Positions 1 to 10,528 of a stretch of 64,000 nt of DNA are shown piece after piece. The notes below the pieces were generated by a model. That model had not been told where the DNA came from. It made no database searches and saw only the letters and a program-made list of their open reading frames with translations. Made by a program: the position numbers and the translations under genes. Position 1 is the stretch's first letter, and every line of letters starts with the position of its first letter. Source of the DNA: Ferroacidibacillus organovorans (lineage in GTDB: Bacteria; Bacillota; Bacilli; Alicyclobacillales; SLC66); assembly GCF_001642725.1 (NCBI RefSeq), contig NZ_LSUQ01000006.1, positions 1 to 64,000 on the forward strand, given 5' to 3'.

Positions 1-1
1 T

Positions 2-292
2 CGACACGCTCATGAGCGAACCGATGAGCAGTTCGACGACGTCGAGCAGACTTTGCAATTTTAGCATCCAGATCGCAGGCGCGCAGATGGTCACGATCGG
101 CAGGATGACGCTGAGCAGTTTGCTCCCTGTGGTCAGATCGATCAGCATCGCGAAGATGAAGGCGAGCGCCATGCAGTTGATCATGGAGGCGCGCATCGTG
201 ATGTGGCGCGGGGCGTGCGCGACGCGTGCAAACATCTGGTAGTAGGCGAGAAAGCCGATGAGCGAGCCGATGAAACTGGTGGCGATCAGCAT
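2..292 (-). CDS. Hypothetical membrane protein, truncated by the window edge (not in ORF track)
   Basis: Minus strand reads caGGAGGTGtcccATG (start 292), then MLIATSFIGSLIGFLAYYQMFARVAHAPRHITMRASMINCMALAFIFAMLIDL... with no stop before base 1; several hydrophobic segments. Confidence 0.7.
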   Translation of the reverse strand, partial: MLIATSFIGSLIGFLAYYQMFARVAHAPRHITMRASMINCMALAFIFAMLIDLTTGSKLLSVILPIVTICAPAIWMLKLQSLLDVVELLIGSLMSVS

Positions 293-307
293 GGGACACC
301 TCCTGTG

Positions 308-337
308 TTGACGTATGTATATGCGAGACAGTATCAT
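308..337 (+). promoter_or_regulatory. Putative sigma-A promoter for the fluoride riboswitch transcript
   Basis: TTGACG (308-313), 18 nt, TATCAT (332-337), ~15 nt upstream of the aptamer. Confidence 0.55.
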
Positions 338-349
338 TCAAGTAATTGA

Positions 350-397
350 ATCGCGATGGAGCTCGCATAAGCCCGGCCGTGGGATGATAGCCCCTAC
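350..397 (+). promoter_or_regulatory. Fluoride (crcB-motif) riboswitch aptamer
   Basis: GCG-AU-GGAGCU-CGC...CCC-loop-GGG-A-UGAU-AGCCCC-UAC matches the crcB-motif layout (P1, conserved AU, pseudoknot 358-363/389-394, UGAU, UAC); lies upstream of two fluc genes. Confidence 0.8.
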
Positions 398-441
398 AAG
401 TGTCCTTGGAGGAAACTCTGTGGCGCTTGTGGGGGTTTTTT
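390..441 (+). terminator. Riboswitch expression-platform intrinsic terminator
   Basis: GCCCCUACAAGUGUC (390-404) pairs with GGCGCUUGUGGGGGU (422-436) using G-U pairs, then a U-tract to 441; its 5' arm is the aptamer's pseudoknot strand. Confidence 0.8.
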
Positions 442-510
442 GCTGAGATCGAGTGGGACGCGACGATCGCAAAACCTAAAGAGACTGCAACACCTAGAGG
501 AGGAAGTTGT

Positions 511-753
511 GTGAAACAGGGAGATCGCCTGGAGGCGCGCGTGGTTGCGCTCGATCAGCGCGGCGCGTGGGTGGAGCATCAAGGCATTCGCGCGTTCGTG
601 CCACTCGCAGAACTCGCGTGGTACGAGATTGAGCACCCGACGGTTTCGCTTGGCGTTGGCGATTTGGTGCGCGTGCGTCTTGTAAAGAAGATGGAGGATG
701 GGGTTTGGGCGTGTTCCGTTCGCCGGGTGGACGTGGATGGGACGCTGACGTAA
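511..753 (+). CDS. Small single S1 (OB-fold) RNA-binding domain protein, 80 aa
   Basis: RBS AGAGGAGG then GTG at 511; GDRLEARVVALDQRGAWVEHQGIRAFVPLAELAWYEIEHPTVSLGVGDLVRVRLV resembles ribosomal protein S1 repeats. Confidence 0.75.
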   Translation: MKQGDRLEARVVALDQRGAWVEHQGIRAFVPLAELAWYEIEHPTVSLGVGDLVRVRLVKKMEDGVWACSVRRVDVDGTLT

Positions 754-830
754 GGCATGAATAGAGGCGTGGCCAGTCGGTTGCGCGACAGATCGATAGA
801 GACAACTTCGATCAACGAAAGGTGTGTCAG

Positions 831-1274
831 GTGTTGGCTGAGGAGAAAAAACGCGAAGAAACGTCGCGCGATCTGTCTTTGCGGGGGGATGTCGCGCGCC
901 AATACGGCGCAGTGGCAGTCGGTGGGGTCATCGGGGCGCTTTTGCGCGAACTGCTCGAGGTGGCGGTGCCACCCGTGCACGGGTTTCCGCTGGCGACACT
1001 CTTGATCAATTGGTCAGGAAGCTTTGTGCTGGCGTGGTTTTACACGGTCACCATCTGGCGCTTTAAGGTGCCGCAGTGGCTGCGCGCGGGCATTGGAACG
1101 GGGATCATCGGAGCGTATACCACGTTTTCCACGTTTGCCGTTGAGACGAACGCGCTTCTCATGCATGGGCAAAGTGCAACCGCACTTCTCTATGTGGTCC
1201 TCAGCCTTGTCGGCGGCTTTCTCATAGCGCTGCTCGGAAGCCATCTGGGCGGCGAGAGGAGGGAGATCGGATGA
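831..1274 (+). CDS. crcB: Fluoride channel Fluc/CrcB subunit 1
   Basis: GGVIGALLR, FPLATLLINWSGSF and GIIGAYTTFSTF motifs; 4 TM; start placed at GTG 831 after GAAAGGTG. Confidence 0.92.
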   Translation: MLAEEKKREETSRDLSLRGDVARQYGAVAVGGVIGALLRELLEVAVPPVHGFPLATLLINWSGSFVLAWFYTVTIWRFKVPQWLRAGIGTGIIGAYTTFSTFAVETNALLMHGQSATALLYVVLSLVGGFLIALLGSHLGGERREIG

Positions 1275-1633
1275 TCGAGTGGGTCGGCGTTGCCATCGGC
1301 GGAATGTTTGGCGCGTGCACACGCTTTTTTATCACCAATCAGATCAACGCACGCTTTAAAAAAGGCTTTCCCGTCGCGACATTTCTCATCAACATCACAG
1401 GCGCGTTTTTACTCGGCTATGTCTATGCGGCGGCGCGTCCGAACAACCTTGTGGACTACTGGCTACGCAGCGCCATTGGCATCGGGTTCATTGGGGCGTA
1501 CACCACGTTTTCCACGTGGATGTTTGAGAGCGCAACACTGCGCGATCGGCGCGCTGTGAAAACGATGGTCGCCTATCTGCTCGCGAGTCTGGTGGTCGGA
1601 CTGTTTGGCGCGTGGGTCGGTTCACGCTTGTAA
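1271..1633 (+). CDS. crcB: Fluoride channel Fluc/CrcB subunit 2
   Basis: GGMFGACTR, FPVATFLINITGAF and GFIGAYTTFSTW motifs; ATGA overlap with subunit 1. Confidence 0.92.
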   Translation: MIEWVGVAIGGMFGACTRFFITNQINARFKKGFPVATFLINITGAFLLGYVYAAARPNNLVDYWLRSAIGIGFIGAYTTFSTWMFESATLRDRRAVKTMVAYLLASLVVGLFGAWVGSRL

Positions 1634-1748
1634 TTTGTGGCGTCACTTAGGAATTACTTGCCAAGACGCGCTGTGTCTACTACCCTTAACCTATTGAATA
1701 GGAATAAGCGAGAATCGTTTGTTCAAATGGGCCAAAGGGGATGGCGGG

Positions 1749-2978
1749 ATGAGTGACTCTTTTCCAATCGATGAGGTTCGCGCGCATTTTCCGGCGCTGA
1801 AGCGTCTGTATCACGGCCAGCGTGTCGCCTACTTTGACGGACCTGGCGGGTCGCAAGTGGCGCAATCGACGATTGATGCGATGACCTCTTACATGGCGCG
1901 CGGCGGCGCGAATCTGCACGGCGTCTTTCCGACGAGCGTTGAGACGGAAGCGACCATCGCAGACGCAAAGACAAAACTGGCGGCACTTCTTCATACGCAA
2001 CCGTCGGAGATCGCATTTGGCGCCAACATGACAACCCTTACGTTCGCCATAGCGCGTGCACTCGCAAGAACGTGGGATGCGCAGACAGAGATTGTCGTGA
2101 CGGAACTTGACCATCGGGCAAATGTTGACCCGTGGCTCACGGCGGCACGCGATCGCGGCGCAAAACCGGTGTGGCTACGGGTGAATGAAGAGTCACTCGC
2201 GCTCGATCTTGATCGTCTTGATGAAGCGATTACCCCACGCACGAGAGTGGTCGCGGTGGGACTTGCCTCCAATGCAGTCGGCACAATAACGGATGTGCGA
2301 CGGATCGCACAGCGCGCGCATGAGGTGGGGGCGCTCGTGGTGGTTGACGCGGTGCATGCAGTACCGCATTTTTCCGTTGACCGCGAAATCTTGGACGCTG
2401 ACATCCTGTTGTGTTCAACGTATAAGTTCTTTGGCCCGCACGTCGGCGTTGCGGCGATTCGCGAGGTGCTGTTTGCGCAAATCGACGTTTACAAACTGGA
2501 CCCAGCCCCAACGTATGATCCGGACAAACTTGAAACGGGAACGCAGAGCCACGAAGGGATCGCGGGGATTGGCGGCGCGCTCGATTTTCTGGCAAGCCTT
2601 GGCGACGGGACGACGCTGCGTGAAAAGATGATTTCTGCCATGAAACGGATCGAGGCGTATGAGGACAGTCTGGCGCGTCACATGCGCGCGGGGTTACAGG
2701 CCATTCGTGGTGTGCGGCTTTTTTCGGCAGAAGAGGGAATCCCTAAAACGCCGACGCTTGCGATCACGGTCGATGGGAAGAATGCGCGCACTGTGTGCGA
2801 GCAAGTGGTGGAGACAGCGAGTGTTTTTGTGGCGGATGGCCATTTCTATGCGAGTACACTGGCTGATCGGCTCGATGTAAACGCCTGTGGCGGCTTTGTG
2901 CGGGCCGGGATTGCGCCGTACAATACGCAAGAAGAGGTGGATCGCTACCTGAATGCCTTAGAGCGAATCGCGCGGTAG
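1749..2978 (+). CDS. Cysteine desulfurase-like class V PLP aminotransferase (VC1184-type subfamily)
   Basis: YFDGPGGSQV, ELDHRANVDPW, VDAVH and CSTYKFFGPH (PLP Lys) motifs; ATG 1749 after AAAGGGG. Confidence 0.85.
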   Translation: MSDSFPIDEVRAHFPALKRLYHGQRVAYFDGPGGSQVAQSTIDAMTSYMARGGANLHGVFPTSVETEATIADAKTKLAALLHTQPSEIAFGANMTTLTFAIARALARTWDAQTEIVVTELDHRANVDPWLTAARDRGAKPVWLRVNEESLALDLDRLDEAITPRTRVVAVGLASNAVGTITDVRRIAQRAHEVGALVVVDAVHAVPHFSVDREILDADILLCSTYKFFGPHVGVAAIREVLFAQIDVYKLDPAPTYDPDKLETGTQSHEGIAGIGGALDFLASLGDGTTLREKMISAMKRIEAYEDSLARHMRAGLQAIRGVRLFSAEEGIPKTPTLAITVDGKNARTVCEQVVETASVFVADGHFYASTLADRLDVNACGGFVRAGIAPYNTQEEVDRYLNALERIAR

Positions 2979-10411: not shown

Positions 10412-10528
10412 CCTGGTGATGATGGCGGAGGGGACACACTCGTTCCCATCCCGAACACGGCAGTTAAGCCCTCCAGCGCCGATGGTACTTGGACCGCAGG
10501 GTCCTGGGAGAGTAGGACGTTGCCAGAC
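10412..10528 (+). rRNA. rrf: 5S ribosomal RNA (stand-alone, no adjacent 16S/23S)
   Basis: CCTGGTG...GTTCCCATCCCGAACACGG...GTTAAGC...AGCGCCGATGGTACT...GGGAGAGTAGGACGTTGCCAG; ends pair as helix I; ~117 nt. Confidence 0.97.

Follow-up and report, generated by a model that had tools for sequence, protein, structure and literature searches.

Organization of the locus

The stretch analyzed here, hereafter the window, comprises the first 64,000 nucleotides (nt) of contig NZ_LSUQ01000006.1 of Ferroacidibacillus organovorans (assembly GCF_001642725.1), read on the forward strand. Close to its start, a putative fluoride riboswitch precedes a small gene for a stand-alone S1-like protein with an oligonucleotide/oligosaccharide-binding (OB) fold and two crcB genes encoding Fluc subunits. 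Among the genomes examined, the clade of this S1-like protein occurs exclusively at fluoride-response loci within a single family of acidophilic Bacillota, and our best guess is that the protein serves as a helper or tether that binds single-stranded RNA (ssRNA) or another polyanion. An earlier note on this DNA had proposed an ON-type fluoride riboswitch followed by an S1 gene and a Fluc pair on one likely transcript, a layout with which the predicted anatomy agrees:

308..337, + strand: promoter-like site, TTGACG-18-TATCAT, 10 of 12 consensus matches
343..403, + strand: putative fluoride (crcB-motif) aptamer of a variant class, RF01734, full-model match of 21.3 bits
389..441, + strand: predicted intrinsic terminator using the 3' strand of the pseudoknot as its 5' arm, stem 389-437, T6 run 436-441
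499..503, + strand: Shine-Dalgarno sequence GGAGG, 7 nt 5' of a GTG start, read from the sequence
511..753, + strand: stand-alone S1/OB-fold gene of 80 amino acids (aa), GTG start, Pfam S1 (PF00575)
754..830, + strand: intergenic spacer of 77 nt, analyzed by folding and site scans
831..1274, + strand: crcB1, Fluc subunit whose N- and C-terminal tails are charged, PF02537 at 89.6 bits
1271..1633, + strand: crcB2, Fluc subunit, PF02537 at 89.3 bits
1610..1637, + strand: terminator-like hairpin (1610-1627) and T-rich tail closing the operon, from the site scan

The crcB1 start was placed at GTG 831, following AAGGTG, with an alternative GTG at 822, and the two crcB genes, correctly recognized from the outset as an overlapping fluc pair, share 4 nt (ATGA). 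Both products are four-helix PF02537 subunits with TTFST and LIN motifs, whose roles we take to be those usually assigned to them in CrcB proteins; N and T-T-F-S-T are invariant in the crcB1 and crcB2 alignments. The 77-nt spacer had been described as free of a U-tailed terminator, and a separate promoter within it, driving fluc, had been named as a finding that would speak against the proposal. Site scans of 754-830 detected neither promoter-like nor plus-strand terminator-like sites, and the fold of the spacer is ordinary (z-score -1.6). In the related genomes G016 and G005 (genomes are numbered from G000, the window genome), open reading frame (ORF) coordinates place crcB1 ~19 nt behind the S1 gene. 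S1, crcB1 and crcB2 are thus probably carried on one transcript. A longer ORF at 400-753 (117 aa) was considered and rejected, its start lying within the terminator without a ribosome-binding site; public records give the S1 gene of a relative as 82 aa and as 112 aa.

A variant class of fluoride aptamers

The site at 308-337, where a promoter had been suspected, is the only sigma-70-like site found in window positions 1-2000; 0.9 such sites are expected by chance, and the scan by itself proves little. Comparable -35/-10 pairs were recognized by eye just 5' of the aptamers of G016, G011 and G003. The RF01734 match, obtained with relaxed filters (E = 0.0017 locally and 0.0019 over the whole genome), coincides with the crcB-motif aptamer previously outlined at 350-397. 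The covariance-model check proposed for it gave a mixed outcome, with a match at the relaxed threshold that stays below the Rfam gathering score of 34 bits, and a scan of the window at the default Rfam threshold reports no fluoride aptamer (21.3 < 34 bits). This gathering score is a curated threshold and no structural feature, and the window aptamer is the top RF01734 match of the 3.03-Mb genome, with the runner-up at 14 bits.

As read from the sequence, helix P1 consists of three pairs (G353-G355 with C364-C366) and a C352.A367 mismatch, P2 of four (C372-G375 with U380-G383), and the pseudoknot joins 358-363 to 389-394 by five out of six pairs, leaving A360.C392 unpaired. The GAUGG, UGAU and CCUAC blocks, which we take to form the Mg/fluoride site, are present according to the model alignment and the invariant alignment columns. 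The 3' strand of the pseudoknot is also used by a terminator, as had been anticipated for 390-441: its stem starts at 389, and the segment 388-445 folds with -32.5 kcal/mol (z-score -6.0), a stability reached by none of 200 shuffled sequences. A simple terminator scan of the window did not list the terminator at 389-441. With 389-394 common to terminator and pseudoknot and crcB genes downstream of the leader, the architecture suggests the logic of an ON switch.

We scanned the 19 genomes of the window's family for RF01734 (E <= 0.1) and obtained matches in 17, which exceed the cut-off in four. The alignment comprises 20 aptamers, namely 19 matches of at least 20 bits with an assigned locus and one from Alicyclobacillus fodiniaquatilis. 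It omits the duplicate contig of G001, one 24.9-bit match without a locus, all matches below 20 bits (two of these, at 18.9 and 19.5 bits, were not aptamer-like on viewing) and six matches between 20 and 21.6 bits. Of these six, four (in G013, G014 and G007) aligned over too great a length or only in part, one in G014 scored 20.0 bits, and one in G007, with an assigned locus, scored 20.2 bits. Across the 20 aptamers, 89% of the P1 and pseudoknot cells are paired, compared with 40-52% when partners are slid, and compensatory changes occur at two P1 pairs; the sequence of P2 varies between genomes with its pairing retained, as judged by eye. GAUGG and CCU are found in 20/20 aligned rows, some of which carry AAUG or CCUG. 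Pseudoknot pair 18-55 (alignment columns) is A.C in 13 rows and A:U in seven.

Two aptamer classes coexist in the family. Canonical members pair GGAGCU with GGCUCC and score 47-57 bits. The variant class combines GGAGCU with (A|G)GCCCC and an A.C in the middle of the pseudoknot (358-363/389-394 in the window; loci L039-L065 and L094-L103), and relatives with the same variant score 20-28 bits, below the 34-bit cut-off. An exact-pattern scan of 185,579 species located the variant at 10 loci, all in the acidophile family and Alicyclobacillus fodiniaquatilis. Low-scoring aptamers head two crcB ORFs in G004, in G012 and at L099; at L101 and G014_C148 (pseudoknot A:U) two ORFs follow, the second alone matching CRCB. 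Enolase follows such aptamers in G003, in G011 and at G014_C121a (pseudoknot A:U); in other cases AAA ATPases or, in Alicyclobacillus fodiniaquatilis, a Na+/H+ exchanger lie downstream. Variant leaders in G003 (mutS operon), G007 and G014 were overlooked by cmscan and located by eye or regular expression. The aptamer-like leaders of G007 (L104:1861-1995) and G014 (L105, minus strand) have GUUGG for the GAUGG of all other copies, carry a promoter and a terminator, and are unreported by cmscan at E <= 10. We read the window leader as a genuine, lineage-specific fluoride riboswitch variant with predicted ligand binding, because the variant recurs before fluoride genes, P1 covaries and the terminator platform competes with the pseudoknot. 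It is speculation that a protonated A+.C wobble might render the switch pH-sensitive.

Among other genes standing first behind fluoride aptamers we noted a Glu_synthase-domain gene (47.2 bits, canonical class), a sigma-70 factor (56.8 bits), a GPR1/FUN34/YaaH channel, a MoxR-type AAA ATPase and an FtsH-like AAA/M41 protease; the loci with such unusual first genes are L042/L071 (G001:C70), L040 (G012), L055 (G014), L046 and L098.

The S1-like protein forms a separate clade

ORF 511-753 has a strong ribosome-binding site, and its reading as resembling one S1 repeat was borne out by a Pfam S1 match of 37.1 bits (cut-off 22, E = 4e-9). Compared with its congener G001, the gene has a ratio of non-synonymous to synonymous substitution rates (dN/dS) of 0.23, based on 7.5 non-synonymous and 9.5 synonymous differences in 75 codons; crcB1 yields 0.08 in the same comparison. 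A structure model calculated from an 11-row alignment (predicted local distance difference test, pLDDT, 83.4) displays the order b1-b3, helix, b4-b5, with strands at residues 6-15, 18-23, 26-31, 52-60 and 66-69 and the helix at 32-41. The top Foldseek chains are YabR, a human S1 domain, GSP13 and domains 3-4 of ribosomal protein bS1, at template-modelling scores of ~0.72-0.76. We conclude that the 80-aa ORF is a real S1/OB-fold gene, since the Pfam match, the confident OB model and the dN/dS of 0.23 all argue for it.

The clade bears the signature PLAE(I/L)AW(F/Y)E(I/V)EHP, and twelve columns are invariant over 11 clade sequences. In one profile search against solved structures, on which the assigned kinship is based, its best match is domain 3 of E. 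coli bS1 (residues 188-250, 38.5 bits), with which it has the motif AW..(I/V).HP in common. A tree with two bS1 repeats as outgroup separates the clade from these with 100/100 support; it leaves the order of free and fused copies (see below) and the number of fusions or fissions unsettled, and the free copy of G003 clusters with fused copies of its own genus (91/97). Positions that we take from the PNPase S1 literature to contact RNA (b2 aromatics, the b3 His and basic residues) are largely altered relative to bS1 domain 3: the first aromatic, before GA(F/W) (GAF strand), is replaced and the second kept as Trp, the His of LLHIT is Pro, and the basic KRVK has become F/Y-E-I/V-E. In addition, 12/12 domains are acidic, with isoelectric points of 4.5-6.4. 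Canonical RNA binding by the clade is consequently possible but not assured, the aromatic, His and basic positions being replaced and the domains acidic.

Free and fused S1 copies in fluoride operons

The clade was surveyed in 41 genomes, G000 and 40 relatives, counting matches with E <= 1e-14 as strong. It is present in 11/19 genomes of the window's family and in 0/22 genomes of the sister family, where matches correspond to bS1 in frames of ~390-450 aa. A pattern scan of 185,579 species detected it at nine loci, all in Bacillota or metagenome-assembled genomes of Bacillales. The best 150 matches of a whole-library profile search include at least five single-domain proteins, the rest being mainly multi-repeat bS1, so that the clade size is a lower bound. 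Homologue searches returned two clusters with the 80-aa protein and four with the fused N-terminus, and a protein-cluster search of the S1 protein returned generic S1 clusters only. Named relatives are Ferroacidibacillus organovorans (91% identity) and Sulfoacidibacillus thermotolerans.

The free form (80-85 aa) was found in five genomes of four genera, in all five within an aptamer-headed operon with a crcB pair. Gene order is aptamer-S1-crcB-crcB in G000, G001, G016 and G005, and this arrangement is more than chance, as the order of the window recurs in three other genomes of three genera. In G003 the operon reads aptamer-MutS_V-MutS_V-crcB-crcB-S1, with an aptamer (L069:17417-17470) seen by eye and missed by the model. 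The proposed survey of riboswitch-S1-fluc synteny thus supported the arrangement in three other genomes, but placed S1 last in G003 and found none in G004 and G012. G001 carries its aptamer-S1 locus twice with equal scores (G001:C1:1047-1274 and G001:C52:6108-6335), which may be either a duplication or an artefact of assembly or contamination, the latter being stated as 5%.

In seven genomes the S1 domain is N-terminal to a divergent family I pyrophosphatase domain (PF00719), in proteins of 248-265 aa:

L033:3974-4723: S1::pyrophosphatase fusion
L037:3977-4726: S1::pyrophosphatase fusion
L034:3971-4717: S1::pyrophosphatase fusion
L029:3971-4726: S1::pyrophosphatase fusion
L030:1128-1922: S1::pyrophosphatase fusion
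L031:3980-4738: S1::pyrophosphatase fusion
L032:3980-4744: S1::pyrophosphatase fusion

The operon of G011 has the order aptamer-enolase-crcB-crcB-fusion. In G003 and G009 the aptamer is followed by a hydrogenase/complex-I-like cluster (seven genes in G003), the fusion and a second pyrophosphatase, of family II in G003 and family I in G009. The same cluster lies behind the GUUGG leader in G007 and G014, which heads it ~8 kb 5' of the fusion gene. No aptamer was seen in G017, where the contig begins 1.1 kb 5' of the fusion, or within the 4 kb read in G002. Accordingly, 5/7 fused loci, and 10/12 loci when free and fused copies are taken together, stand behind an aptamer or aptamer-like leader. 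Riboswitch-crcB-crcB units without S1 exist in G004 and G012, of the same genus as G016, and G006 has a riboswitch and a more distant crcB pair, also without S1. Because such units exist without S1 within one genus, the S1 protein is an accessory and not the core of the Fluc unit, and its place in the operon is variable. As a separate observation, a DUF6062-like fragment lies directly 3' of the aptamer of the hydrogenase-like operon in G009 (L044:1649-1906 / L068:322-765).

Fused pyrophosphatase-like domains have altered catalytic positions

Fused PF00719 domains score 101-169 bits, versus 183-208 bits for unfused ones. At 14 positions that we presume, from E. coli pyrophosphatase numbering, to be catalytic or metal-binding, 2-7 are changed in 9/9 fused sequences, and the Asp67-equivalent is N, H or E in eight of the nine. 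Among three unfused neighbours, two have no change, and the third, located beside the G009 fusion, differs at two positions, one of them Asp67 (Ala). The fused domains may represent fluoride-tolerant variants or pseudo-enzymes. Fusions are usually found where aptamer-headed hydrogenase/complex-I-like operons end, with an unfused pyrophosphatase of family I or II as neighbour. The structure model of the fusion (pLDDT 68, predicted template-modelling score 0.49) is too poor to judge domain contacts. The free S1 protein tracks no single pyrophosphatase type, as G005 (99% complete) lacks family I and possesses family II, whereas G000 and G001 have family I only.

Elsewhere in the window we noted a lone 5S rRNA gene (10412-10528, 98.6 bits); 16S, 23S and tRNA genes were found nowhere in the 64 kb.

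Proposed function and alternative explanations

We propose that transcripts from the sigma-70-type promoter would carry a leader folding either as a fluoride aptamer or as a strong intrinsic terminator. With fluoride bound, the pseudoknot would hold the shared strand, the terminator would be blocked, and read-through would yield one transcript with the S1-like gene, crcB1 and crcB2. The S1 protein would be a small module that binds ssRNA or a polyanion and is produced exclusively during fluoride stress, the free form acting on transcripts as chaperone, stabilizer or translation aid and the fused form tethering its pyrophosphatase-like domain to RNA, where pyrophosphate arises. To this explanation as a whole, encompassing switch, operon, clade, accessory status and RNA- or polyanion-binding role, we assign a probability of about one half; switch, operon and regulon membership are much firmer than the molecular role. 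The functional guesses of the earlier note were an RNA chaperone or translation aid or a feedback factor on the leader; the comparative data would point elsewhere, to an optional module of the fluoride regulon, fused to a pyrophosphatase-like domain in sister genera.

Several observations weigh against the explanation. The window aptamer scores below the cut-off and escapes the default scan, with a P1 of just three pairs and a mismatched pseudoknot. Aptamers were not seen at two of the seven fused loci, and crcB pairs stand behind riboswitches without S1 in G004 and G012. Replaced aromatic, His and basic positions and the acidity of all domains make RNA binding doubtful, and with catalytic positions changed in every fused sequence, the tethering of an active enzyme may not apply. 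It is improbable that the S1-like OB domain is a dedicated RNA-binding effector of the fluoride response, synthesized only once the riboswitch has opened and controlling stress transcripts at the post-transcriptional level, with the fused partner as a Mg-pyrophosphate-fluoride sensor that lost catalytic residues, notably the general-base Asp. If true, the fusion would be a protein-based fluoride-responsive RNA regulator beside the RNA-based one.

Foremost among the alternatives, although unlikely, is a Rosetta-stone reading in which the OB domain does not bind RNA and instead docks on or regulates pyrophosphatase, or pyrophosphate handling, the free form doing in trans what the fused form does in cis. 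The fusions to PF00719 in seven genomes argue for it, as does their position next to a second pyrophosphatase (family I in G009, G014 and G017, family II in G003); the acidic domain surface and the loss of several basic and aromatic residues of bS1 domain 3 fit as well, and the enzyme is a classic fluoride target and frequent riboswitch-associated gene, according to the portions of PMC11139923 and PMC11210485 used here. The free S1 of G005, accompanied by family II alone, and those of G000 and G001, with family I alone, speak against one enzyme partner, and the fusion model is too poor to reveal contacts. We consider it quite unlikely that the free protein is a Fluc partner, attaching to the CrcB1/CrcB2 channel at its cytoplasmic face or charged tails to modulate it or aid its assembly. 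All five free copies adjoin a crcB pair, on its 5' or 3' side, the fused form of G011 likewise follows crcB-crcB, and CrcB1 has charged extensions at both termini; yet crcB pairs lack S1 in G004 and G012, as do the more distant pair of G006 and the two crcB ORFs of L099 (at L101 only the second ORF matched CRCB), and most fused copies are located ~8 kb into hydrogenase-like operons, distant from crcB. A complex prediction of S1 with CrcB1 and CrcB2 scored 0.01 and carries no weight either way.

Similarly doubtful is a feedback on the protein's own leader, in which it would attach to the terminator arm in single-stranded form and, through antitermination, make the switch sharper. Cold-shock proteins with an OB fold are able to melt hairpins in RNA, S1 directly follows the aptamer in four genomes, and an A.C-weakened pseudoknot is present in all leaders of the clade. 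Nevertheless, S1 is the last of five genes in G003, where the fused form is the eighth of nine, and the same variant leaders also serve crcB, enolase and further genes where the genome or operon has no S1. We hold it very improbable that the free gene is a functionless leftover of a broken S1::pyrophosphatase fusion. The unsettled order of free and fused copies in the tree, and the grouping of the free G003 copy with fused ones of its genus, would allow it, but a dN/dS of 0.23 over 75 codons, twelve invariant columns across 11 sequences, the strong ribosome-binding site, a 77-nt gap without a pyrophosphatase trace and retention in five genomes of four genera argue for a maintained gene. Just as little credence is given to a decayed switch, in which fluoride sensing by the leader has been lost and expression of the operon depends solely on the terminator or on a different signal: the score of 21.3 versus 34 bits, the short P1 and the A.C mismatch are what such decay might leave, whereas the variant is kept in 13/20 aligned aptamers, retains the GAUGG, UGAU and CCUAC blocks and precedes fluoride genes across seven genera. 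A variant riboswitch controlling an accessory ssRNA- or polyanion-binding protein remains our preferred explanation.

Relation to known fluoride regulons and S1 proteins

Fluoride riboswitch regulons are the main guide to the needs of cells under fluoride stress, pointing at exporters, enolase, pyrophosphatase and antiporters. Entry as hydrogen fluoride makes fluoride especially toxic for acidophiles. An OB-fold/S1 protein in three kinds of fluoride operon, together with its fused form, is a candidate for a new fluoride-tolerance function in these organisms, within the limit that the clade was found in one bacterial family only. Furthermore, the sub-threshold aptamer class escapes standard Rfam annotation.

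Aptamers of the window type share with RF01734 crcB operons the conserved blocks, P1, P2 and the pseudoknot, and they precede the same kinds of genes (crcB, enolase, mutS-like genes and a formate-hydrogenlyase-like complex). Overlap of the terminator with the 3' portion of the motif is likewise described for many crcB RNAs in the part of PMC2864571 consulted. Unlike RF01734 in general, the variant scores 20-28 bits, has a conserved A.C for A:U in the pseudoknot and a shortened P1, and its exact pattern was found only in the window's family and one Alicyclobacillus.

Genes reported behind crcB motifs in the consulted part of Weinberg 2010 (PMC2864571) comprise mutS, K+/Cl- transport and formate hydrogen lyase, and the supplementary files contain neither 'S1 RNA' nor a crcB-linked pyrophosphatase entry. 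The available part of a 2024 review (PMC11139923) lists exporters, Na+/H+ antiporters, pyrophosphatase, enolase, haloacid-dehalogenase-type enzymes and formate hydrogen lyase, counts pyrophosphatase among the genes most often behind fluoride riboswitches, and nowhere has the term 'RNA-binding'. The window locus differs from these riboswitch-associated pyrophosphatase genes in having no pyrophosphatase domain, and relatives add an N-terminal S1 domain and catalytic substitutions. The S1::pyrophosphatase fusion is undescribed in the literature searched, including the main text of PMC11641769 on S1 architectures, which is without pyrophosphatase. The earlier note had found S1 unfamiliar as a partner of this riboswitch, and among the full-text matches listed no paper links S1 to a fluoride riboswitch or crcB, the gene lists of Baker 2012 (PMC4140402) lying outside the comparison; the association is absent from the searchable fluoride-regulon papers.

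With respect to the protein itself, the closest known counterparts are GSP13/YugI (PDB 2k4k), YabR (9a5a model) and CvfD of S. pneumoniae, likewise single S1 OB folds. GSP13/YugI and YabR are the top fold matches, with a sequence match of 31.7 bits to 2k4k, a likeness of fold and profile only, and these stand-alone S1 proteins of Bacillota have a link to stress by name. CvfD is described as a post-transcriptional regulator in the part of the report consulted (bioRxiv 10.1101/2020.06.23.167635). From bS1 domain 3 the window protein is set apart by consisting of one domain, by its replaced Tyr/Phe, His and Lys/Arg positions and by its separate clade. The known stand-alone proteins are ~130 aa long and 23-25% identical to it, whereas the 80-aa window protein is acidic, has the basic residues near HP replaced and is encoded inside a putatively riboswitch-controlled fluoride operon.

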